From positions 51,695 to 71,694 of the IMG/VR virus record IMGVR_UViG_3300042398_000686: DNA of 20,000 nt; one strand, 5' to 3'. Within the stretch, counting starts at the first letter, position 1; each line of letters begins with the position of its first letter. The translations under genes and the position numbers were made by a program. Below the pieces are notes generated by a model. The model made no database searches. It had not been told where the DNA came from and worked only from the letters and a program-made list of their open reading frames with translations. Positions 1,584 through 15,715 of the stretch are shown in pieces. This DNA is from an uncultured virus (IMG/VR IMGVR_UViG_3300042398_000686). Lineage: Duplodnaviria; Heunggongvirae; Uroviricota; Caudoviricetes.

Positions 1584-1934
1584 TTATTTATCGTATTTTA
1601 TGACAAAAGTCATATCTGTATTTTGTGATATAGGTAATGCTTGAGATAATTTAGCAACAGCTAATAAGTCGTTTTGTTCATTATATAATCCTATAGTTGT
1701 AACATAAGGTTCAAAATATGAAGATGTTGCAAAATATTTTAATTCAGGTAAAGGTGTATTTAATGATTGTGATATAAAAGTACTTCCTGTAAATAAATTA
1801 TTTTGTAATAATGTTGGGTTATATGAAGCATTAAATTCATTATCCTTAACATGACATATTACGTTTTGCTCATAGATTATCACTTCGTTTTGAAACGAAA
1901 TGTTAAAACTTGGTGGCGGTGGAGAATATCCCAT
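1584..1934 (-). CDS. Virion structural protein; C-terminal-half paralog of the 340-aa protein
   Basis: HVKDNEFNASYNPT and YVTTIGLYNEQNDLLAVAKLSQAL align directly with RVKNQDFNYTTNPS and YITTVGMYNDQNELLAVAKLSRPL of 5363..6385. Confidence 0.8.
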   Translation of the reverse strand: MGYSPPPPSFNISFQNEVIIYEQNVICHVKDNEFNASYNPTLLQNNLFTGSTFISQSLNTPLPELKYFATSSYFEPYVTTIGLYNEQNDLLAVAKLSQALPISQNTDMTFVIKYDK

Positions 1935-1957
1935 ATTATTATTTTATTATAATTATA

Positions 1958-2698
1958 TTAACAAATAGTAGAATTTAAAATAAGTCCTGAAGTGCCTATT
2001 TGGATTACACCTACTATGGGTCCAATTCCTAGATATGATAATGCAACCCATCTGTCAAATCCATTAACAGGTATTGTAAGAGCTGCATCTCCATATACAT
2101 AATTTCCAGGTGCTATACCTCCCACTGAATTAACATAATAGGCAGCGTATGCAAATGCTGGATATGCATTACAAGCTAAATAAGCTTGAGTATAAGCTCC
2201 AGAAGGAGTACCTATATACAACAAACTAGATGCGGGTGGTGTAACTGATGGTGTTCTGCTAATTGATATAGAAGGAGTTGGTGTTAATGAAATAAGAGGT
2301 GTTTCACTTGGGGTAACACTTGGGGTAACACTTGGTGTATTACTAGGTGGTGGTGTTACACTAGGTGTTACACTAATAGTTGGACTAGGAGTTACAGTTC
2401 TAGTTGGTGTTACAGTAACAGTTGGTGTTATACTAGGTGTTATACTAATCGATGGTGTAATAGATATAGATGGCGTTGGAAACGGTACTATATCTTGTGT
2501 AGCACAACCAAATGACATATTAACTACAACAATAGACGATGAAGTAAACCCACTAGGAAGAGTAATAAAATATCCTCCATCCAATTGAGCTTGAGTTACT
2601 CCTGAAGCATATAATTGCAATCCTGAAGTTCCTGATAAGTAAATATCAAATGGTCCAGGTGAATTTCCTTCTTGATAGTATATTTGAAAATCTGGCAT
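1958..2698 (-). CDS. Putative virion surface/fibre protein: small N-terminal beta domain, TPS mucin-like linker, Cys-bracketed C-terminal domain
   Basis: About 85 aa of TPS(I/V) repeats between two globular segments. The C-terminal domain has a Cys near its start and a terminal Cys. Located in the tail gene cluster. Confidence 0.7.
2230..2480 (-). repeat. Coding TPS repeat tract of the 246-aa protein
   Basis: [32 protein letters not shown]..., the same unit type as in the 871-aa protein. Confidence 0.9.
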
Positions 2699-2721
2699 AA
2701 ATTATTTTATATTAAATATTT

Positions 2722-5337
2722 TTAAAAACATGTGAACGGTAATTGTCCCTCATAGTTTATTATTGTTGATGTAAAATTTACTGAATACTCATCATATACA
2801 TCAAATCCAAAAAATGGGTCATAATATTGATATTGGTACCAAAATTCTGCTAAAGAATACATTAATGTAAATGTAACGGCACCATCATCAGTAGCATAAT
2901 AATAACCGTCACTACCTAACCATATACCATAAGCAGGACCACAAGGTGTACCAGGAGTCCAATCATTAGCATAGAATGTATATGATATACCTGATACTGA
3001 TGGTGTTATACTTGGTGTAATTGATGGTGTTTTACTAATACTAATTGAAGGCGTTACACTTGGTGTTTTACTAATACTAATTGAAGGCGTTACACTTGGT
3101 GTTTTACTAACCGATATTGATGGTGTTACACTTGGAGTAGCACTAGGTGTTCTACTTACACTAATAGATGGCGTTATACTAATCGATGGTGTTATACTTG
3201 GAGTAACACTAGGTGTTCTACTTACACTAATACTTGGAGTAGTAGATGGTGATGGTGGAGCAGGGCATGGATTAAATGCTGTACATGCATTACAATCTTC
3301 AAACCCTAAATCACCACTCCACGTTATAGTTGCAACTGGTTCAATATTACTGTTTATAAAGAAACATTCATCTGTTGTTGATGTTACTACTGTTCCTATA
3401 AATGCCGCTGGTATTACCATTCCTTCTTTTCTAGAATCACAACAACTTATTGCTTGGCGAATAACTGATGGTGATGAAGTAGAAGGTGTTCTACTTGGTG
3501 TTACACTAGGTGTTTTACTAACCGATATTGATGGTGTTATACTTGGTGTAACACTAATCGATATACTTGGTGTTATGCTAGGAGTAACAGATGGTGTAGC
3601 ACTAATCGAAATCGATGGTGTTATCGAAATTGAAGGCGTTACACTTGGTGTAACACTAGGTGTTTTGCTTATACTAATCGATGGTGTAATACTAATAGAT
3701 GGTGTAATACTAATCGATGGTGTACTTGATATATTAGGCGTTACACTTGGAGTATTAGAAATAGAAATACTAGGAGTAACAGATGGTGTTGCGCTAATCG
3801 ATATACTAGGTGTAATTGAAATCGATGGCGTTATACTAGGAGTAACACTTATAGAAATTGATGGTGTAACAGATGGTGTTGCACTTATACTAATACTAGG
3901 CGTAATACTAGGAGTAGCAGATGGTGTAACAGATGGTGTTGCACTTATCGAAATTGAAGGTGTTATACTAATAGACGGTGTTATACTCGGCGTTATACTT
4001 GGTGTAGCGCTTATCGAAATTGATGGTGTTACACTTGGAGTAGCACTTATCGAAATCGAAGGTGTAATCGATGGTGTTGTACTAGGAGTAGCACTAATCG
4101 AAATCGATGGCGTTATCGAAATTGAAGGCGTTACACTTGGAGTTACACTTGGTGTAGCACTTATTGAAATTGATGGTGTTACACTAGGTGTTGCACTAAT
4201 TGAAATCGAAGGCGTTATTGATGGTGTTATACTAGGTGTTCTACTTGGTGTTACTGATGGTGTTCTACTAACACTTATACTTGGTGTAGGACTTACTGAC
4301 GGTGTAGCCGATGGAGTTCTACTAACAGATATAGTTGGTGTTGTTGTTGGTGTAACAGTTGGAGTAACAGATATAGTTGGTGTTGGTGTTACAGATGGTG
4401 CTGGTGGTGAAATTTCTATAATACCTATTTCAAATTCACATTCTGGATCTGTTACATTTACTGTTATACTTCCTGTACCACTACGTAAAGGAGCACAATA
4501 AGAACCAGTAACTAAAAATGTATAAAAAGTTTGATATGTCCCTACTCCTAAACCAGAGAAAGACATAGATACAGTGTTACTAGAACCTGTACTAAAGAAT
4601 GATATATCCCCTCCAAATAAAGTAATAGATTGATTTACTAATGTATTACCCCTTAAATCATCATTTATTAAAGGATTAAATGAGAATGTTGCTGGGTTAG
4701 GGTAGTCACTTCGTATAATTGTGTAATTATCATCGTACGCTACTGGAGGTAATACAAATAATGTTTGAAAATCTTGACTAGTAATTACTACTGTACCTTG
4801 TTCATAAAAAATATTACCTACGTGAGCTGGTGGATTACTATTAAAGTTATCATAAACATTACCCTTACCATCATCATAAAAATTATACTGAGATGATGAC
4901 ATTTGGAAAGTATAAGGTAATAATCTACTTCCGTAAGCTTTAGGTGATATTTGTATTACCTTTATTTCCTCATTTGCTCCTGTTGGGAAATTAGAAATAA
5001 AAGCAGGGTCATTGTTATAGTTAAAATATGAAGCAGTAGGGTGACTACTGCTAGCTGATTCATAATATAATGATGATGCTAATGAAGATGTATTTAAACT
5101 ACCTGAAAAGTCATGGTAAAATAATTGGTTAATCTGTCTATACGTTAACCTATCATAATGTCCATTAGTTATCCAATCCTCATTAGGATTAAATAGATCT
5201 GTTGAATTTATACCATTATAATACGAAACATAAGGGTCATTAGTTGGAACCGGACAATAATTAAAGTTCCAACTTTTATTTGCTACAACAGGTACTGTTA
5301 TAACATCCGAAGATTTTAACTTTTTGAATGAACCCAT
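2722..5337 (-). CDS. Multidomain virion fibre/baseplate protein: N-terminal anchor domain, Ig/cadherin-like domain, long TPS repeats, Cys-rich modules
   Basis: The N-terminal ~195 aa resemble the N-terminal part of the 340-aa protein. PPVAYDDNYT...NPLINDD...TFYT...GSITVNV resembles Big_9/cadherin-like Ig domains. About 400 aa of S/T/P/I/V repeats fall in two tracts separated by a 6-Cys module. Confidence 0.75.
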   Translation of the reverse strand: MGSFKKLKSSDVITVPVVANKSWNFNYCPVPTNDPYVSYYNGINSTDLFNPNEDWITNGHYDRLTYRQINQLFYHDFSGSLNTSSLASSLYYESASSSHPTASYFNYNNDPAFISNFPTGANEEIKVIQISPKAYGSRLLPYTFQMSSSQYNFYDDGKGNVYDNFNSNPPAHVGNIFYEQGTVVITSQDFQTLFVLPPVAYDDNYTIIRSDYPNPATFSFNPLINDDLRGNTLVNQSITLFGGDISFFSTGSSNTVSMSFSGLGVGTYQTFYTFLVTGSYCAPLRSGTGSITVNVTDPECEFEIGIIEISPPAPSVTPTPTISVTPTVTPTTTPTISVSRTPSATPSVSPTPSISVSRTPSVTPSRTPSITPSITPSISISATPSVTPSISISATPSVTPSVTPSISITPSISISATPSTTPSITPSISISATPSVTPSISISATPSITPSITPSISITPSISISATPSVTPSATPSITPSISISATPSVTPSISISVTPSITPSISITPSISISATPSVTPSISISNTPSVTPNISSTPSISITPSISITPSISISKTPSVTPSVTPSISITPSISISATPSVTPSITPSISISVTPSITPSISVSKTPSVTPSRTPSTSSPSVIRQAISCCDSRKEGMVIPAAFIGTVVTSTTDECFFINSNIEPVATITWSGDLGFEDCNACTAFNPCPAPPSPSTTPSISVSRTPSVTPSITPSISITPSISVSRTPSATPSVTPSISVSKTPSVTPSISISKTPSVTPSISISKTPSITPSITPSVSGISYTFYANDWTPGTPCGPAYGIWLGSDGYYYATDDGAVTFTLMYSLAEFWYQYQYYDPFFGFDVYDEYSVNFTSTIINYEGQLPFTCF
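2995..4405 (-). repeat. Coding low-complexity repeat (TPS[IV] and TPSISIS units) in two tracts, about 3466-4405 and 2995-3260
   Basis: Degenerate 12/18/24-bp units. Includes a perfect 36-bp tandem repeat (3025-3110, about 2.4 copies) and a 53-bp duplicate with one mismatch (3596-3648 and 4088-4140). Confidence 0.95.
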
Positions 5338-5362
5338 TTATTAACATTTGTTATTGATTAAA

Positions 5363-6385
5363 TTAGTAATCTAATTTTACTTGAATTAATGCTTCTTTTG
5401 TAAAATCTTTTACCAATGGTCTACTTAATTTAGCAACAGCTAATAACTCATTCTGATCATTATACATACCTACAGTAGTAATGTATGTTTGAGGATTGTT
5501 AATTAATGTAGTATATATTAAATTACCATTAGCATCAATAATAGATGGGTTAGTAGTGTAATTAAAGTCTTGATTTTTAACTCTAGTAAAGAACAAATGA
5601 GAAGAGACATTCTCCTCAGATTGTAAAGCAAAATAAGAACTCCCAGACATTATCTGATATATTCCTGTTTGAATATTGTTATTAGTTCCAGGTGCATTTA
5701 CTGTAGGATTATAAGATATACCTCCATCTACAATAGATTTACTTAAAGCTGTAGGATTTAAAATAATAATATCACTATCTGGGTATAAGTAACCATACAC
5801 AGAAGCATTAGTAGCTGCTGTAGCTGCCGTACCTGCACTACCTGAAATTAAAGTATAATATAAAGTACCTGCTGTTGTATAATTTGTTGTACTAGATATT
5901 TGACTATTATCTGTTAAAGAAATTTCATTAAATCCATTTTTCAATTTTAATGTCATTGAACCTGGTTGAATGTGTTCTTTATATCTATTTCTAGCAACAT
6001 TTATGATGTAAATACCATTTGGGTTGTCATTATTAAACTCAAAACTACCACTTTCAGTCCCTAATAATAATGTCCTATATTGACCATATACAACTCTAGA
6101 AGTTGTAAGTGATGAACCATCCGGTAAGACAGTTGTAACTCCGTTATTTATATAACTAGAACCACTTCCATATTTGTTACCATATTGAATAGCTAATTGA
6201 ACTGACTCCGTAGTAGAAGTTAAAGCTCCTGGATAATTGGAGTAGACATTTAAGTAAAAAGGACTTGTAATAGCACTAGAAGTGTAAAATGTAGATAATA
6301 CATTTTCATCACCACTCCACATTGGTCTTACAATAGCCTCAGTACTTACTACAGAATCTTCTGGTGTGTATCTTACGAATGACAT
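5363..6385 (-). CDS. Virion structural (baseplate/tail-fibre attachment) protein
   Basis: S/T/G/N-rich, beta-type composition. The C-terminal TTVGMYNDQNELLAVAKLSRP motif is reminiscent of the EIGLFD..G.LIAVA end of tail-collar fibre (DUF3751) domains. Located in the baseplate cluster. Confidence 0.7.
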   Translation of the reverse strand: MSFVRYTPEDSVVSTEAIVRPMWSGDENVLSTFYTSSAITSPFYLNVYSNYPGALTSTTESVQLAIQYGNKYGSGSSYINNGVTTVLPDGSSLTTSRVVYGQYRTLLLGTESGSFEFNNDNPNGIYIINVARNRYKEHIQPGSMTLKLKNGFNEISLTDNSQISSTTNYTTAGTLYYTLISGSAGTAATAATNASVYGYLYPDSDIIILNPTALSKSIVDGGISYNPTVNAPGTNNNIQTGIYQIMSGSSYFALQSEENVSSHLFFTRVKNQDFNYTTNPSIIDANGNLIYTTLINNPQTYITTVGMYNDQNELLAVAKLSRPLVKDFTKEALIQVKLDY

Positions 6386-7096: not shown

Positions 7097-10000
7097 TTAT
7101 TGAGTTAAATTGATTCCTGCGTCAATTAATTGTTGTTTAGTATTAACTGTTATGACATCTATATTGTTTAAAACATTTTGTGCTATGTTTTGAGGGATTG
7201 AAAATCCATAAGATGTTTTTCCATTTGGTTTAATTAGGTTAACTATAATATTGGTTTCGTCATTTACACGTTTTAAGAAAATAATTTTAAAAAATTTATT
7301 ACAACGATCCTCAAAATACCCACTTATATCTTCTTTAGTTTGTATATAAACAATACCATTTCCACTATATATAATATTACTAACTGTGTATTCCAAGAAA
7401 GGTCCATTTTCATCTATTACTTGAACAATAATTTTATCATTTTCTTGTAAAGCAAATGGATATAAAATATCTCCATATTCTAAATATAAATTAGCATATG
7501 ATGAAGATATTAAAGTATCTAACGGGTTAAATATATAATTAGTACTAAAGAAAGGGGATAACTGAGGTGATAGATAAAAAGAATTAGCAGCTTGATTAAC
7601 ACATACAGACGAAGTTGTCACTAATAAAGAGTCATTAGTAGGAACTACCTGTAATATGCTATTATTAGTTCTAAGAAGAGAAGCTGTTACTGGGCCTACA
7701 TTAGATTCTACAAAAAATCTAAATCCAATTTTATCACCTACTACATAATTAAATTGGTCAATTTCTACTAGGAAATTTCTATTAAAGTTTAATGTTTGAG
7801 GTTGAGGTCCTGAAAATGGTCGTGATATAAATGTATATTTAGGAGTAGTAGGACTTCCTGGTATTCCTGACCCATCTTTTATCCAAATGGTCCCAGCAAA
7901 ATAGCTTTGAATAGGAACATTATTTTGATCTATAAGTACAGGATTACCAACACCAACACCATCAATATCACTACCACCAATATCACTGTTAGAGGAGTCA
8001 TCAAGAGCATTACCAATATAAACATAAACATTATAAGCAGAATATAGAGTATCTGCTAAAAACGTCTCCGTGCTTATTGGATTTGGGTTTATTCCATCAT
8101 ATGAATATAATATATACCCATTTAATAGTGTTTTATTTTGAGTAGGATCTGGTACGTATTGGGCCGGTCCTGAAAAATCTTCAAAAGAAGACAAAGTTCC
8201 ATTATAGTAATTAGTTCTCATTTTAGCTGTTAAGCTTTGAGTACTTTCTGTTAACATACTTATACCTGAAGAGCCACTTTTCCATAATTGCATACTAGCT
8301 GTTAATTCTGAGTTTAAAGGACCTTCTACAAAAATACTAAAATTGTATGTGAACATATAGTCCCCTTCTGTAGCTAATGTATAATATGAAGAAGTTAATA
8401 CATTTCCAGCACCCGGACCAGTTCCAAAATTATAATATAATCCTAGATTGGAGTTAGGAGCCGTTAAACTAAACATATTCCAGACTTCATACTTATTTCC
8501 TGTTCCTAAATAACTTGAAGAAACATATTGGGTTGATGGATTTACTCCACCTGATACTATAAGACCTCCAGAGGGATATAGAGTAAAAAATCTATCAACA
8601 ATTGCTGAGTTTCCTCCTCCTACAGTATTAAATATAGATTGTGATTCATAACTTGCAGATTCAAAACCAAACATGTAAAAAGTAGGGAAATAAGAATATC
8701 CACTTTCGTAAATAACTTTATTACCATTAGTTTGTGCTTGATTTGAATATTGTTGTGAATTAAATAAAGATACGTTTAATGAATTACCTGCTTTAAATGT
8801 GTTTTGTACTTCTTGCCAGTTTCTGTTTCTCTGGTTTAATTCAGTAAATCCTCCAACTTCATTAACTAGATATTTTAATTTAACATTTGATTTATAAGGT
8901 AATATACTGTTTACAACTTCTGTAAATAATCCTAATTTTTTAGTATTATGAGTAATAACTGGAGATTGACCATATGCTACATCTCCTGGTGTCCATACAT
9001 TATAAAATCTACCAAATAATTGAACTCCATTATATCTTGAATTTACATGTGCATGTAAGCTTAAATATGAATCTTGTAGATCTACAGGTTCTTCAATAGA
9101 ATATGATGTAAAAACTCTTCCTAAACTATCAGTTGACATAATAGGAGTTAATTTTTTTCTAAAGCTAGATTCTAAACTTTTACTTACATTATTAAATAAA
9201 GCATTAAAACTTGAATTATAGAAAAAATTCTCATAAAATACGGCATTATAATCTAATATAAAATCAGTATTCCCACCCATAAACCCAGGAGGTACTACTC
9301 CTGCTGTATTGTTGACTAAATAAGGATTTATATTGTTTTCTTCAAAATATATGTAAGTATCAATAAATGAACCTGTAATTTCACCATTATAGTAAGCTAC
9401 TTTATCTCCTGATAGATATTCGTAATATGGATCATATATAGGGATTATAGCAGCACCCGTTATAGCACCATCTAAATCTATCTGAACATTGGATACAGGT
9501 CTAGCTTCTGGTACTTTAGGGCGTTCTAATACTGGTGATTTAATAGATACCCCTGTCCAAGTATTACCTCTAGCAGGAGTAAAATCTTTAACCATTTTAA
9601 ATAATGAATTGTCAAAGAATTGAATTAATCTAATAAACCCAGCATAGTCGAATCCTTCATTTGGATGTGTAAATGTTTGACCAAACCAATAATCTCTTTG
9701 GTATGATAAAGAAGGATAATTATCTAAATATAAAGCTTGAGGATATGCTATATAGTCATCTATAACCCATGATGGGTTAGAAGCAGCTATAGAAGCAGAT
9801 ACAGCCTCATCTATTTGTGTTTGAGGTGAAAAAGATACATCAATAAAATGTAAATCTTGACTTTTAATTGCTCTAGATGATGTTGTAGTGGTTTCTAAAC
9901 GTTTTATAGGAGATAAAATACTTCCTGTGATGTTATTAGAACCAATTGATATTTTATCTGTTGTATATCCTTTTAAATCTTGGTAGTCGTTCATCCCACC

Positions 10001-11944
10001 ATATTCTTTAATAGGAAGAATTGAACCAGTAATACCAAATAAGGTAATTAAGCCTTGTAAACCACCATGTGCACCTTTTCCTTTAAATAAGTAAGGTAAA
10101 TTATGATAAAGTCTTTTATAAGTATCTAGTACTAAATCTTTTCTAGGTACATTATTTAAAAAACTACTTGATGGTGAATAATCCCCATTATAACAAGGTC
10201 CTAAATCTGTTACTGTAATTCCTGAAGTTAATGGTAAATAGCTTCCCGATATAGCGCATACTTCTGAAGTTCCATTAAATGGTGGTACGGATACAGCATC
10301 TGGGGTTCCATTACATGAGGTATAAGTTTGAAATAGAAAATTACCTGAGGTGTTAGTAAATCGGTAGCTAACACAATTAGGAGCAAAATCAACACTACCA
10401 CTAAATCCACCTACATTATAATCTAATACACTTTGGTTACCTTGAGAATTGTATAATTTCATCCCAAACGATTGTAACCAATCATATACTAAATCTTGAG
10501 ATATACCTTCATTTAGATTGTTATTATTATCCCATACATCTGTTAATTTATCTATATAAATCCAAACATTATCAAAATATTGACCTATCATTTCAACAAA
10601 TACAATATATGGTAGATAATTGTCTGGATCATCTGTTATATATGATGGTATTGTGTTAACTAATATATCTTTATTTGTTAAATCAAACTCACCAGCTACT
10701 TCAATAGTATCGTTATACCAAGATTGAACTATAACTGATGATGAAGCATATAATGTGTATGGTTTTGTACTGTTAGATTTTGGATAAGGAGCAACGTTAT
10801 AAATAAAATATGATCCTGATTCTAAAGCATATGTTGTTATACTTGAAGTTAAAGAACTAGAAGTATAGTATAAGTAAGTTTCAAATCCATCAAAACCACC
10901 TATTACTGTATTTAAACTAGAACTTGCTCTTGTTACTTGATTTACTAAAGAAGCATTACTAGATGTTAATGGTGAAAGAGTACTAATTTCATATTGGTAT
11001 CCTTCAATTTCACCTATCTTATTTAAAAAATTATTTACTCTACTTGTAGCTGAACTGTAGTGAACAAATTCATTAAATGCACTATAATCTACATTTATAT
11101 TTACATTTTGATTTGTTAATGAATTTAATACGGCTTGATAAGATGAGCCTGTAAAAGATGTTACTAACTGATTTAAATTACTATATGGAGTAGGTACTAC
11201 TTCTTTAATTTCTAAATCAATATCAAAATTAGGTCCTTTTAAAAAAGGTTGAGGAAGTGGAGTTGTTAACTTATCTAAATTAAGATCAAACACATAAGGA
11301 TTAACAATTTCTTCTACAATCCAAAATGTTGATTTTAAAGAAATATTAGCTGGTAATGGTTCATATAATTTAAATAATATGCTAACATTACCTGTTTGAT
11401 CTACTTCACTTACTATATTTACAGCTACTACTTGATTATTATCACCGAAATTTAAAATAACATAGTAATAATAAGGAACATCAAGCTGTTTAGTAGCAAA
11501 ATTTTCAGCTATGTCAATTAAGGCTTCATCAGTTAACTCAGTAGAATCTACACGTAATTCAGTTCTATCTGTAGATATTTGTTGAATAAACAATTGATTA
11601 CTAAATGGTTCACCTGATATTTTTCTAAAGAAATTATAACGAGATACAACTTCCCCAGACTCATATCCTAAATCCTGTATATCTTTAATAGGATCTATTT
11701 CAATATCAGGAAGTAAGCTTTGTGAATATGCTGAATTGGATGGTAATTTATATGAATTATAATTGTAATCTGAATTAAGGATGTTTCCTCCTTGATCAAA
11801 TAAAAAGTATTCAATATAATCCTGAGGTAAACCAAAGGTTTCCTGGTTTAAGATAGGATTAAGTAATTGTTCCTCTTGAGCAGTATAACGATTTATACGC
11901 TCAATATCTGTAACTTGTCCTACTATTTTAATATTATCGGCCAT
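7097..11944 (-). CDS. Large baseplate protein (gp7 / P2 gpI-like wedge region plus extended C-terminal domains)
   Basis: 1615 aa. RLYHNLPYLFKGKGAHGGLQGLITLFG...IKEYGG resembles the KGT helix motif of P2 gpI/T4 gp7-type wedge proteins, and LFKMVKDFTPAR resembles their distal motif. Downstream of the gp25-like and gp6-like genes. Confidence 0.6.
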   Translation of the reverse strand: MADNIKIVGQVTDIERINRYTAQEEQLLNPILNQETFGLPQDYIEYFLFDQGGNILNSDYNYNSYKLPSNSAYSQSLLPDIEIDPIKDIQDLGYESGEVVSRYNFFRKISGEPFSNQLFIQQISTDRTELRVDSTELTDEALIDIAENFATKQLDVPYYYYVILNFGDNNQVVAVNIVSEVDQTGNVSILFKLYEPLPANISLKSTFWIVEEIVNPYVFDLNLDKLTTPLPQPFLKGPNFDIDLEIKEVVPTPYSNLNQLVTSFTGSSYQAVLNSLTNQNVNINVDYSAFNEFVHYSSATSRVNNFLNKIGEIEGYQYEISTLSPLTSSNASLVNQVTRASSSLNTVIGGFDGFETYLYYTSSSLTSSITTYALESGSYFIYNVAPYPKSNSTKPYTLYASSSVIVQSWYNDTIEVAGEFDLTNKDILVNTIPSYITDDPDNYLPYIVFVEMIGQYFDNVWIYIDKLTDVWDNNNNLNEGISQDLVYDWLQSFGMKLYNSQGNQSVLDYNVGGFSGSVDFAPNCVSYRFTNTSGNFLFQTYTSCNGTPDAVSVPPFNGTSEVCAISGSYLPLTSGITVTDLGPCYNGDYSPSSSFLNNVPRKDLVLDTYKRLYHNLPYLFKGKGAHGGLQGLITLFGITGSILPIKEYGGMNDYQDLKGYTTDKISIGSNNITGSILSPIKRLETTTTSSRAIKSQDLHFIDVSFSPQTQIDEAVSASIAASNPSWVIDDYIAYPQALYLDNYPSLSYQRDYWFGQTFTHPNEGFDYAGFIRLIQFFDNSLFKMVKDFTPARGNTWTGVSIKSPVLERPKVPEARPVSNVQIDLDGAITGAAIIPIYDPYYEYLSGDKVAYYNGEITGSFIDTYIYFEENNINPYLVNNTAGVVPPGFMGGNTDFILDYNAVFYENFFYNSSFNALFNNVSKSLESSFRKKLTPIMSTDSLGRVFTSYSIEEPVDLQDSYLSLHAHVNSRYNGVQLFGRFYNVWTPGDVAYGQSPVITHNTKKLGLFTEVVNSILPYKSNVKLKYLVNEVGGFTELNQRNRNWQEVQNTFKAGNSLNVSLFNSQQYSNQAQTNGNKVIYESGYSYFPTFYMFGFESASYESQSIFNTVGGGNSAIVDRFFTLYPSGGLIVSGGVNPSTQYVSSSYLGTGNKYEVWNMFSLTAPNSNLGLYYNFGTGPGAGNVLTSSYYTLATEGDYMFTYNFSIFVEGPLNSELTASMQLWKSGSSGISMLTESTQSLTAKMRTNYYNGTLSSFEDFSGPAQYVPDPTQNKTLLNGYILYSYDGINPNPISTETFLADTLYSAYNVYVYIGNALDDSSNSDIGGSDIDGVGVGNPVLIDQNNVPIQSYFAGTIWIKDGSGIPGSPTTPKYTFISRPFSGPQPQTLNFNRNFLVEIDQFNYVVGDKIGFRFFVESNVGPVTASLLRTNNSILQVVPTNDSLLVTTSSVCVNQAANSFYLSPQLSPFFSTNYIFNPLDTLISSSYANLYLEYGDILYPFALQENDKIIVQVIDENGPFLEYTVSNIIYSGNGIVYIQTKEDISGYFEDRCNKFFKIIFLKRVNDETNIIVNLIKPNGKTSYGFSIPQNIAQNVLNNIDVITVNTKQQLIDAGINLTQ

Positions 11945-11961
11945 TAACCATCAATTATTTA

Positions 11962-12312
11962 TTATTCAATTCTACCTGTTTGGGCTTCCAATGTAGCATT
12001 AGTTGTTTCGGCCTCCAACAGTTGTTGTCTTAAATCTGTTATTTCTTGTAATAAAGCTTGTATTTCATTATCATCTGATATTCTTACTCCCAAATACTCT
12101 GCTTCACGTTCTAAAATAAATCTATGTGAATCTACATCTCCCTCTCTAGGTATTTCAGTAAATAATTCATCATATAATTCAAAAAAATTTTCTAAAGTTG
12201 TTTCAGGTGTTGTTGGTGGAACAGCATTAAGTTCACTAAATTGAGTATTAATTACTTTAGCAAACGTGTCTTTGTTATAAACTAAATTTCTAATTGGAAT
12301 TACTTCAGCCAT
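11962..12312 (-). CDS. Hypothetical protein with C-terminal coiled coil (probably virion-associated)
   Basis: Acidic 116-aa ORF with the heptad segment EIQALLQEITDLRQQLLE. TAATG overlap with the upstream gene. Confidence 0.7.
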   Translation of the reverse strand: MAEVIPIRNLVYNKDTFAKVINTQFSELNAVPPTTPETTLENFFELYDELFTEIPREGDVDSHRFILEREAEYLGVRISDDNEIQALLQEITDLRQQLLEAETTNATLEAQTGRIE

Positions 12313-13454
12313 TATTTATTAAGTTTAAAAATATATGAATTATCATAAACTACTGTTGAACCATTTTCAAATGAAGATTTTACTAATATTTTATAATATC
12401 TTTCAGGTTGTAAACCAGCCATGTACATGTCAAAATAATTTCCAGATCCATCACAACTTAATTTAGTGCAACTTGGATCAAAATCTATAACATATTCACC
12501 TGTATCTAAATCTTGTAAAGCCCAATATGAGCTAGAAGGTAATGCTTTATTTAATGTATAAACAGATACAGTTGTAAATTGTCTAGCAGGGTATATATCT
12601 CTAGCATTTACTCTAAATCTATAAACATCATTTCGATTATATTTACCTATATTATTTCCTAATGTAATTGCTATGTTTTCATTAGTTAAAACATTTAACG
12701 AACCTGTATTATAGACACTATCATCCCATTTTATTTCTAATTGTGGTAGATATATTGTGTGAGTATCTCTAGAAAAATATTTTAATGAATATGATGATGT
12801 ATTAGTAAGTTCATAATTACTTGTCATTTTTAACAAGAACCCATCATTTATTAAAGTATTACTATTATAACCATCTGTAATATTGGTTACATTTAAATTA
12901 ATATCTTTACTTTGATTTATACCAAATGTTTGAGAACCGGCGTAACTAAACCACCATGTACCTCCACCTGGATTTTGAGATTGAAAAGATGCTGTTGTAT
13001 CAGTATAAAAACTAGCTGTTAACCATTCATTAGTATTATCTCTATTTCTCCAAGTTGCATTTTCTGTATCATATGGGTTATATAAAAAACGTCCTGTACC
13101 TTGTTCCCAAGATTGAGATACACTATAACATTCTAATGAATAAGTGTCTGGTAAATTTGAAGCGTCTGCTAAATATAATCTTAAAGAGGCTGAGTAGAGG
13201 CCATTTGTTGAAATTATAGGAGTTAAAGAATTTATACTTTCTGTATTAACTGTAGGCAACACTATTGTATTTAATACTCCCTCTATTTCATCAGTAGGAA
13301 ATTTTATTAATACACGAGAAGCATAAGGAGTTGAACCCGCTAATAAAGAATTTTCATTAGAGATTTCTAGAATCTGATCCAACCCAGTATTCATGTCTGG
13401 GTATTTGGAATAAATTGTTGTATCCTTCTCAGGGAATATCTTATAAACTGCCAT
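12312..13454 (-). CDS. Virion protein with DNRLRE-like beta-sandwich domain
   Basis: The pattern DTTIYSKYPDMNTG...SRVLIKF...ASLRLY...VSQSWEQG...ATW...GFLLK...PQLEIKW follows the DNRLRE/CBM96-type layout. A second beta domain follows. Confidence 0.55.
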   Translation of the reverse strand: MAVYKIFPEKDTTIYSKYPDMNTGLDQILEISNENSLLAGSTPYASRVLIKFPTDEIEGVLNTIVLPTVNTESINSLTPIISTNGLYSASLRLYLADASNLPDTYSLECYSVSQSWEQGTGRFLYNPYDTENATWRNRDNTNEWLTASFYTDTTASFQSQNPGGGTWWFSYAGSQTFGINQSKDINLNVTNITDGYNSNTLINDGFLLKMTSNYELTNTSSYSLKYFSRDTHTIYLPQLEIKWDDSVYNTGSLNVLTNENIAITLGNNIGKYNRNDVYRFRVNARDIYPARQFTTVSVYTLNKALPSSSYWALQDLDTGEYVIDFDPSCTKLSCDGSGNYFDMYMAGLQPERYYKILVKSSFENGSTVVYDNSYIFKLNK

Positions 13455-13466
13455 CTATGTTATTTG

Positions 13467-13483
13467 TTTATTATAAATATAAA
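13467..13483 (-). promoter_or_regulatory. Putative late promoter motif (TTTATATTTATAATAAA)
   Basis: Intergenic 17-mer identical to 18966-18982. The core ATATTTATA lies 17 nt upstream of the ATG at 13454. Confidence 0.6.
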
Positions 13484-13487
13484 GTTG

Positions 13488-15299
13488 TTAAAAAGTTACA
13501 ACTCTACCTTGAATGTCTAATTCAGGATATCTTATTTCAAATATAGAAGGATCTAATGAAGGGTATAAGATTCCATTTTGAATAGCTCCTGCTACATCAT
13601 AGCTATATGGAGAATAATTTCCGCCTGATTTATTTGTAAATTCTATTTTAACTACCGATTGTACTCCTTTAATCTGTAACAGTAATGAATTAATATTAGA
13701 TAAGATTATAGGTTGATTTACCTGCCATTTATCTGTATCAAAATAGTTAGTAATAGCAGTAATACAATCTGTTAGTATTTGATTATTACTTAAACCAGGA
13801 ATAACAGTTATATCAAAATTTAATCCTAAATTTATATAGAATGCGTCTTTAATAGTAATAGCATCTGTAACCATTCTAAATGGCTCCATATATTCTTTTA
13901 AATTCGTTTTTAAATTTAAAGTAGCATTTTCTAATTTTTTAGTAGAATTATATGCTAACACATACATTGAAAGTGCAAGTGGATTATTATCTATTAAAGG
14001 ATCATTTCCTGAATTAACAGATAAAGCAGATGCTTGTTCAACATATACTTTAGCTATGGTACCAAAATCAGAAGGCATACTTAAAGCACGATTCATATAA
14101 TCGTCTTTTGTTACAGCTCTTAATTGTGCCGAGAACGCATTTAGCGTGTTTAAACGTATTTCTTCTGTAGTATCACCACTCCTGCCACCTACAGCAGGTA
14201 ATGGATTATTTGCGATTAAAGTCGCTAAAGATACGTTATTATATATTGGGTTAACAGCATTTATTCCAGCGTTTGAATTAATAATAGTAATATCATTTGC
14301 TGGTACATTAGCTGTTACTCCTCCACCTGAAAGGTATTGGACATTCATTGATATATTTGAAGGTACAGTACCGTACTGTTTTGTGTAAAATACAGCTGCT
14401 TGATTATAATTGTTAACTAAATCCGAAGTATCAACTGATGGTACTAATCCTAATTGAATATTGTCTGGTGTTGGTATGATAATATCATCGTTATCATTAA
14501 CATACATACCCGAACCAAATTGCAGTTCTACAACATCATCAGTTCTAATTCTTGATACAAATCTATTAGGTGTTTCTAAATAACTTAAAAGATAAGGTAC
14601 TTGATTAGAAGAAGGCCCAGTATTAGTTGTTCTATTAATTATGTTAGATTGAGCTAAATAAGGTACTTCATACCATTGGCTACCATCACTTCCTGTAGCT
14701 TGAAGTATTTGAAGGAAGGTTGGATCATTTATTTCAACTGAGGTAAATTTTACAGGTGCCCCAAACGTAAATGTTTGATTTTGTACTGTTGCTGATATAG
14801 CTCTAACTGATTTTTTGAATAAGTAATTATTACCATCGTACAATGTTATTTCAACTGATTCTGTTTTAGAAAAATCAACAGGATCTAAAGTTAAAAAGTC
14901 AACATTAGTACTTACTGATCTTAAAGATAAATTTTCTGGGATTATTAATGCATAATCTAGATTAGGTTGTCCTGCTACTATAGGAATTCTTTGATAAAAA
15001 TCAATTGTAGTAACAGATGCATATGACGATTTAGGACGATATCCTAATGAATACGCCATATTTAATAAATTTTCTTTTTCTCTAGCGGTTAATACAAAGT
15101 TTTCTTGTATTTGAGTATCTGTGTAAAAAGACAAAACATCTCCAACGTATGATGACATTTCAATAAACATCGTACCTGGTGACGCTTCTGAAAAATCGGT
15201 ATAAGTATTAGGAAAATAATTTTTAGCAAACTCTATAAGAGATGCTTTATACTGAAGGAAATTCTTATTTAAATAAGATATGTTTTTTTGCTCTGTCAT
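13488..15299 (-). CDS. Baseplate wedge subunit (T4 gp6 / baseplate J-like)
   Basis: YTDFSEASPGTMFIEMSSYVGDVLSFY, AYSLGYRP, LQFGSG, YLSGGG..ANV, GGRSGDTTEEIR and QLRAVTKDDY are characteristic gp6/J motifs. Directly follows the gp25-like gene. Confidence 0.9.
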   Translation of the reverse strand: MTEQKNISYLNKNFLQYKASLIEFAKNYFPNTYTDFSEASPGTMFIEMSSYVGDVLSFYTDTQIQENFVLTAREKENLLNMAYSLGYRPKSSYASVTTIDFYQRIPIVAGQPNLDYALIIPENLSLRSVSTNVDFLTLDPVDFSKTESVEITLYDGNNYLFKKSVRAISATVQNQTFTFGAPVKFTSVEINDPTFLQILQATGSDGSQWYEVPYLAQSNIINRTTNTGPSSNQVPYLLSYLETPNRFVSRIRTDDVVELQFGSGMYVNDNDDIIIPTPDNIQLGLVPSVDTSDLVNNYNQAAVFYTKQYGTVPSNISMNVQYLSGGGVTANVPANDITIINSNAGINAVNPIYNNVSLATLIANNPLPAVGGRSGDTTEEIRLNTLNAFSAQLRAVTKDDYMNRALSMPSDFGTIAKVYVEQASALSVNSGNDPLIDNNPLALSMYVLAYNSTKKLENATLNLKTNLKEYMEPFRMVTDAITIKDAFYINLGLNFDITVIPGLSNNQILTDCITAITNYFDTDKWQVNQPIILSNINSLLLQIKGVQSVVKIEFTNKSGGNYSPYSYDVAGAIQNGILYPSLDPSIFEIRYPELDIQGRVVTF

Positions 15300-15715
15300 T
15301 ATACAAAGTTAACTGTTATATTATCTGTTTCTCCTGATAGGAGTATTATGTATGCTATTTTTACAAGTAATGTATTAGAAGATTCATTAGGTTCTATTAA
15401 TAATTCAATATTTTGAATGTTTACTTCTGGGATGTATGTTGCAACGCTATTAATTATATCTTCTCTAACGTTATCTAAAGTTTCTTCTGTCATTTGTCCA
15501 AATAATTGACTCCTTAAAGTGGTACCAAAGTTTGGATTTTCTATTCTTTCTCCTTTAGAAGTTAATACTAAATTAATTACATTAAATTTTATTTGCTCCC
15601 TTGTAGAATAAATACTATTAAAAACTCCGGGAGCATTAAAAGGCAAACCAACACCAATAGCGGTATTGACTTGAAAATCTCTCGGGTCAACTCTAGTACT
15701 TCTAACGTAAGCCAT
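15299..15715 (-). CDS. Baseplate wedge / sheath initiator (gp25 / GPW-like)
   Basis: QIKFNVINLVLTSKGERIENPNFGTTLRSQLF...YIPEV is the GPW_gp25 signature. Confidence 0.92.
   Translation of the reverse strand: MAYVRSTRVDPRDFQVNTAIGVGLPFNAPGVFNSIYSTREQIKFNVINLVLTSKGERIENPNFGTTLRSQLFGQMTEETLDNVREDIINSVATYIPEVNIQNIELLIEPNESSNTLLVKIAYIILLSGETDNITVNFV

Follow-up and report, generated by a model that had tools for sequence, protein, structure and literature searches.

A baseplate-operon gene split at a fixed junction around variable adhesin-like genes in freshwater phages

In many freshwater phages a gene of the type of immuto gp105 is, as judged by sequence comparison, split at a fixed spot, and variable adhesin-like genes lie between its two halves. 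The case analyzed here comes from a stretch of 20,000 nucleotides, referred to as the window, which belongs to a 71.7-kb viral record with an estimated completeness of 44%. Four ORFs, all on the minus strand, are present as the original prediction described them, encoding proteins of 340 aa (5363..6385), 871 aa (2722..5337), 246 aa (1958..2698), and 116 aa (1584..1934). The fission of a gene in this window, with the 871-aa and 116-aa ORFs as its products, is real, conserved, and under selection. Taken as a whole, the observations are probably best explained by a structural protein encoded by a gene in pieces, which refolds in trans and carries a variable stalk.

The N-half core of the split protein, comprising residues 1–197 of the 871-aa ORF (4747..5337), is homologous to immuto gp105 and to an unsplit 287-aa protein from a related locus (L102), which aligns over its residues 1–190 with residues 1–194 of the 871-aa protein (48% identity, E 4e-61). 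Residues 193–286 of the same unsplit protein match the 116-aa ORF, a free C-half with its own start codon (47% identity, E 7e-30). Since these two ranges are adjacent, the two halves of the window abut. Unsplit homologs in related phages, the search for which had been proposed in advance, were indeed found, including gp105 of the cultured Flavobacterium phage immuto; these orthologs of about 290–360 aa resemble the 871-aa protein at their start and the 116-aa protein at their end. The two ORFs are collinear with one unsplit ortholog, as expected for genes in pieces, and both pieces are under selection and have their own starts. Fission of one ancestral gene is thus supported by the alignments. 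Neither half nor the unsplit family has a name in Pfam or PHROGs, and a tentative assignment of the split protein to the tail-collar fibre (DUF3751) family was rejected, as no match was obtained.

The original prediction had viewed the split gene as a second copy of the 340-aa protein divided into two pieces. This holds directly for the C-terminal part, where BLASTP aligns the 116-aa ORF with the C-terminal end of the 340-aa protein (E 1e-12, 37%; HMM E 1e-19), but not for the N-terminal part: direct BLASTP between the 871-aa and 340-aa proteins gave nothing significant (best E 0.03 without composition correction), and profile-profile comparison by hhalign gave a weak match for the 871-aa N-terminus (12%, E 0.0024, 42 columns). 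Paralogy with the 340-aa family holds nevertheless, because the profile of the unsplit orthologs aligns with that family across the break, spanning both halves (99.5%, E 2.8e-23, 173 columns). The intact 340-aa protein, which is the ortholog of immuto gp106 (44%), is therefore a distant paralog, whereas the ancestral type to which the halves should be compared is the unsplit ortholog of the immuto gp105 type.

Three scans of viral contigs together with three phage records yielded 181 loci, which in the fetched DNA comprise 43 unsplit genes, 95 with both halves separate, 16 with the N-half only, and 27 with the C-half only. Deduplication left 106 loci (70 split and 36 unsplit), a sample that is biased toward the query and does not represent a census. 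Loss of the C-half was observed in none of the 16 N-only loci: one of them is an unsplit gene that scored below the cut-off; the remaining 15 stop before the downstream GIY-YIG-like gene. The junction is the same in all 69 readable split loci, where the GNIFY strand and a short helix are the last elements of the N-half to follow the unsplit alignment, and the C-half ORF begins a few residues ahead of the next strand in 69 of the 70 split loci, the exception (L075) being a C-half with a long N-terminal extension. The intervening material varies widely. The appendage on the split N-half ranges from 19 to 1,094 aa (median 379), the lower end being represented by a locus with only about 19 extra residues (L109), and the spacer between the halves measures 0–9,402 bp and holds 0–7 genes, with no gene between the halves in 9 of the 70 split loci. 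In the window, the break (near 4750) and the start of the C-half (1934) lie about 2.8 kb apart, in agreement with the original statement; however, the N-half gene itself accounts for about 2.0 kb of this through its fused appendage, and the 246-aa gene for 788 bp.

The split gene resides in a tail operon on the minus strand, in which gp25-like and gp6-like wedge genes (PF04965 and baseplate wedge PHROGs) come first and are followed by genes for the 380-, 116-, 1615-, 220-, 340-, 871-, 246-, and 116-aa proteins, a GIY-YIG-like protein, and primase. The upstream part of this operon (7097..15715, minus strand), encoding the gp25-like 138-aa, the gp6-like wedge 603-aa, and the 380-, 116-, and 1615-aa proteins, is syntenic with immuto gp113–gp109. 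Overall, seven neighbouring proteins are 31–66% identical to those of Flavobacterium phage immuto (Immutovirus); the 220-aa, 340-aa, and split proteins show 66, 44, and 26% (N-half)/45% (C-half) identity to immuto gp107, gp106, and gp105, respectively, with residues 1–235 of gp105 aligned to the N-half core at 26%. Immuto gp105 (vB_FspM_immuto; YP_010114578) is an ortholog at the same operon position, but it is an unsplit protein of 357 aa annotated as hypothetical, whereas its counterpart in the window is split; moreover, the tail fibre and tail spike genes of immuto sit just after gp105, whereas in the window the appendage is encoded inside the gene. We found no literature on the virion proteins of immuto. 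Kinship with immuto points to a Bacteroidota host for the record; Mel-JY01, which is less closely related, was deposited as a phage of Microcystis. In the latter genome (L034, 5817–15414), the 220-aa ortholog is followed by five tandem proteins of about 350–955 aa with the same C-terminal motif, which suggests an expansion of the family along a baseplate arm.

Several other genes of this neighbourhood deserve description. The 1615-aa protein (7097–11944) has no family match in Pfam or PHROGs, and its gene position would suit a gp7 role. This gene is itself split in 12 of the 86 loci with a match (L025, L027, L057, L062, L065, L071, L074, L082, L090, L093, L100, and L102), with a C-piece of about 240–257 aa and, in L025 and L093, an N-piece that has a PT-rich tail; at many of these loci the gp105-type gene is unsplit. 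In L011 the 1615-aa gene is broken elsewhere, near residue 270. Right after the C-half, the window encodes a conserved 143-aa SegE-like GIY-YIG protein (1138–1569) with the PHROG label 'NAD synthetase'; it lies downstream of the C-half at split and unsplit loci alike and thus behaves as a core gene, not a mobile one. In five loci (L009, L015, L018, L094, and L113), unrelated small proteins with a common MIKL-type leader are inserted just downstream of the C-half gene.

The family is probably a gp8/arm-segment-like outer component of the baseplate, as suggested by gene order and structural models. T4 gp8, the arm segment gp118 of phage 812, and A511 gp105 are small baseplate proteins encoded after gp6- and gp7-like genes; in the window, the genes of the family come after gp25-like and gp6-like wedge genes and after the 1615-aa gene, a gp7 candidate by its position. 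Sequence matches between the window family and the gp8/arm-segment proteins are absent, and the likeness in fold to a phi812 baseplate chain and to a 334-residue KP1 baseplate chain, which by length may be gp8, is weak. The five best VIA matches of the 340-aa model have Z-scores of 4.3–4.6, all below Z 8, with rmsd of 2.0–3.1 over 66–72 residues; three of them are chains of the phi812 baseplate, the KP1 baseplate, and the GP4 fibre adaptor, and the other two come from a haloarchaeal virus tail and a phage neck. For the baseplate chains, the values (rmsd 2.1–2.2, 68–72 residues, Z 4.3–4.6) fall below the reliable range. Placement in the baseplate is accordingly suggested by synteny and weak fold matches, and the gp8/arm-segment role is our best guess because of this synteny and of the gp8-like description of the 812 arm segment, which is reported to be similar to T4 gp8 and to form dimers along arms carrying the receptor-binding proteins (PMC13433997). 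Unlike these single-chain proteins without appendages, the counterpart in the window is split and bears one. Searches of PDB sequences with two profiles returned nothing but one chance match (E 0.64), and Foldseek gave no match against PDB at E up to 0.001. In BFVD, the matches at E up to 0.001 are uncharacterised or unnamed viral proteins, two being named only for a LamG/concanavalin-like domain, and the C-half as a query in ESM Atlas retrieved only unnamed viral clusters.

How the halves might fit together was addressed by structure prediction. In the AlphaFold model of the unsplit protein (pLDDT 70), two long strands cover residues 12–27 and 194–213, the latter being the beginning of the C-half, and the ranges obtained in fold searches (19–204 and 1–287) suggest two domains, each discontinuous across the break and built from both halves. 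Co-folding of the window N-core with the C-half, a check that had been proposed from the outset, gave a high score (ipSAE 0.84 vs. 0.21 for the best control), with contact agreement between runs of at least 96% and a partner pLDDT of 78 or higher; pairing with an unrelated chain lowers the pLDDT of the C-half to 34. The mark applied was passed by 116 of 157 solved pairs and by 2 of 215 mismatched pairs, counts that are only roughly valid with our own alignments. As the alignments included unsplit rows, and halves of split genes tend to pass, the co-fold demonstrates a capacity to rebuild the fold and not that the halves do so. In the predicted complex, the first strand of the C-half (residues ~7–29) runs antiparallel to N-half residues 11–30 and contacts residues 143–150, and the interface also includes N-half residues 1–5, which touch the C-half core. 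The idea that the 116-aa half completes the fold in trans thus gains a predicted fit, and stays at the level of a model; complementation of the halves by strand exchange is, in our judgment, the probable outcome.

On these grounds we propose the following scheme. The ancestral gene of the immuto gp105 type (~290–350 aa) would encode a two-domain beta protein of an Immutovirus-related myophage, with an insertion-tolerant surface loop downstream of the GNIFY strand and short helix. At this loop the split allele would interrupt the chain, so that the N-half runs on into an Ig-like domain, then a flexible PT-rich stalk, and finally a variable tip, while the C-half is translated separately and strand complementation restores the fold in trans, the first long strand of the C-half zipping along and packing on the N-half segments named above. 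The outcome would be a normal baseplate subunit with a free-ended stalk in place of a looped insert, and the conserved halves would flank a cassette of 0–9.4 kb with fast turnover and occasional loss that restores a single gene.

The appendage of the window has a modular organization. Directly after the break lies an Ig-like (Big_9-like) domain (residues ~196–310; 4408..4752), which has no Pfam match and is assigned from ESM Atlas feature matches to Big_9/cadherin-like clusters (score 0.90, 143–165 features in common) that serve as a lead only. Sixty of 65 split copies have a homologous domain after the break, and none of the 36 unsplit loci has a match. It is followed by a Pro/Ser/Thr-rich stalk (residues 311–624; 3466..4407) that matches phrog_15511 of unknown function, a Cys-rich module (residues 625–691; 3265..3465) with six cysteines at positions 632, 633, 658, 682, 685, and 691, a second Pro/Ser/Thr-rich stalk recognised from sequence (residues 692–781; 2995..3264), and a hypervariable distal tip that is a putative adhesin (residues 782–871; 2722..2994), all on the minus strand. 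The appendage is variable, as the original prediction held: its last 90 aa are 17–27% identical to those of three related contigs (L002–L004), whereas the cores are 93–94% identical. The 246-aa cassette gene (1958..2698, minus strand) encodes a conserved N-terminal module of about 75 aa, a PT-rich linker, and a variable C-domain; this N-terminal module occurs at 35 of the 70 split loci, in each case between the halves, and at none of the 36 unsplit loci, although these rows are related and do not constitute independent samples. Neither the appendage nor the 246-aa protein of the window matched a receptor-binding family; SprB-like repeats or DUF285 are present in other split copies. The variable stalk likely affects adsorption, and the appendage may have a role in host range or adhesion. 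In three loci (L005, 3310–9165; L015; L020), a second break parts the Ig-like piece, with an N-half of ~331 aa, from a PT-rich gene of 950–2,350 aa, which hints at docking among separately encoded stalk pieces. In L023, L024, L026, L061, and L072, the cassettes between the halves include several putative glycosyltransferase genes beside Ser/Thr-rich stalks.

The original prediction further argued that splitting frees a C-terminus so that the appendage can be displayed; this needs qualification, since a split is not required for display. Of the 126 unsplit-type proteins in a survey of the 150 top-ranking family representatives, 16 have in-frame insertions of 117–1,331 aa at this junction, and the native C-terminus bears a tail in 12 of 150 free C-halves and two of 126 others. 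The tails of the 12 free C-halves are mostly PT-rich, one having a Fib_succ_major domain, and circular permutation of these C-half-first proteins was rejected, as their tails are not N-halves. Among eight insert-bearing proteins scanned, seven have LamG or no named domain, with LamG located in an earlier loop. Thus, neither the loop nor the native C-terminus needs a split to serve as a display site; the split contributes a stalk with a free end and space for additional genes.

The tree of a neighbouring gene (96 rows) implies at least nine changes of the split state, four of them forced by starred branches, and the gene's own tree (95 rows) implies six, two of them forced; 11 of the 106 rows were left out of the latter tree (nine truncated or atypical, two without a readable motif). 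A single clade of split copies is rejected (p-AU 0.0007, from a quick tree with a simple model), and an eight-row unsplit clade (96*) is nested inside split lineages. The non-monophyly of split copies points to re-fusion or allele swapping; the trees are quick and unrooted and may be affected by recombination. Most split copies have one Ig-like domain in common, so that one origin with later re-fusion or replacement by unsplit alleles is a simpler account than repeated fission; re-fusion of the split gene may have taken place.

Whether the split brings an advantage is a separate matter. An in-frame loop appendage may have later gained a stop and a restart, yielding a heterodimer that works without advantage, with cassette genes piling up only because the site tolerates insertions. 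This neutral origin does not conflict with in-trans assembly, the difference being one of adaptive value alone; it would account for the same-loop inserts in unsplit-type proteins, for the apparent loss of the split state in several cases, and for the non-stalk genes in cassettes. However, the retention of the split allele with its Ig-like domain over deep lineages, the fast replacement of the tip, and the exclusive location of the 246-aa-type module between split halves argue against it, and we regard it as possible though somewhat unlikely. A more elaborate adaptive proposal, in which a reversible split subunit with a reciprocal beta-zipper forms a plug-in socket, the half-genes act as recombination arms for a host-range cassette, the stalk carries 246-aa-type modules, deletion of the cassette re-fuses the gene, and the 1615-aa gene undergoes the same fission, is likewise tentative.

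A different possibility is that the halves became independent after fission, the C-half acting alone or swapped into the 340- or 220-aa paralogs and the N-half anchoring the stalk via other partners. The homology of the C-half to the 340-aa C-terminus would permit this, and the correlation of N- and C-half distances is lower in split loci (0.50, 62 rows) than in unsplit ones (0.80, 27 rows), although this difference may reflect recombination over the longer spacer or unequal depth of the row sets. The collapse of C-half pLDDT without the N-half, the predicted interleaving of domains across the break, and the absence of any demonstrable C-half loss among the 16 N-only loci make independence unlikely. 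Selection was compared in pairs picked by hand from tree neighbours: the free C-half gives a dN/dS of 0.091 (18 of 19 split pairs could be used) against 0.096 for unsplit copies (all 8 pairs), and the N-core gives 0.12 in split pairs (n = 18) and 0.27 in unsplit pairs. These values support retention of the free C-half under purifying selection, and by this measure it is functional.

Translation of the C-half from its own start, as in the preferred in-trans scheme, is consistent with the upstream regions: the C-halves have their own ATG in AT-rich initiation regions, where 46 of 70 starts have A at -3 and 23 of 70 have ATATTTA at a distance of no more than 30 nt; these may represent a Bacteroidota initiation signal and a late-promoter-like motif, respectively. 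These ATG codons, together with a spacer of 0–9.4 kb made of long open stalk-coding frames, speak against rejoining of the halves into one chain via an intron, a split intein, or ribosomal bypass. Of 22 split N-halves scanned from related loci, one (L067, 10001–13072) ends in a PT-HINT-like domain at the distal tip, with a HINT match below the threshold (E 1.4e-5), but no intein family was found in the parts of the window, nor any HINT match there or among 77 C-halves, and rejoining is highly improbable. Misassembly, raised as a concern from the start, was checked with contigs from four of 20 runs and excluded at both junctions, the one near 4760 being bridged by contigs X4 (4112–6232, 0 differences) and X6 (4615–5583) and the one near 1940 by X4 (1744–2520) and X5 (1684–2577), all from other runs; the related contigs L002–L004 have a gene order identical to the window. 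Thus, although the region is repeat-rich and its whole stretch is not spanned by any one examined contig, an assembly artefact is refuted by these bridges and by the recurrence of the arrangement in 70 deduplicated loci, and its probability is negligible.

Among phage enzymes there are known cases of fragmented genes whose products reassemble as proteins, and in chaperone-usher and other pili a strand from one chain completes the fold of another by donor-strand complementation. Here, in contrast to pili, the partners are fragments of one ancestral chain, the predicted exchange is apparently reciprocal, and no polymer is formed. The closest mechanistic precedent is nrdA of phage Aeh1, an enzyme gene fragmented by insertion of a homing endonuclease gene, whose two polypeptides are described as assembling in trans without splicing (PMC3045599), new tails being needed. 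In the window, by contrast, a structural protein is split by stalk/adhesin-like DNA and native strands are predicted to join; no endonuclease gene lies between the halves, where the spacer consists only of the appendage and the 246-aa gene, with no Pfam match. A full-text literature search, covering few subscription papers, turned up no report of a comparable split protein from a virion or baseplate.

If confirmed, the arrangement would show how a widespread group of aquatic phages diversifies its adsorption apparatus while leaving the conserved baseplate untouched. The two halves would then represent a natural split-protein pair usable as a display or tagging tool, and the family would lend itself to the study of how a gene can reversibly split and fuse at a fixed structural seam.
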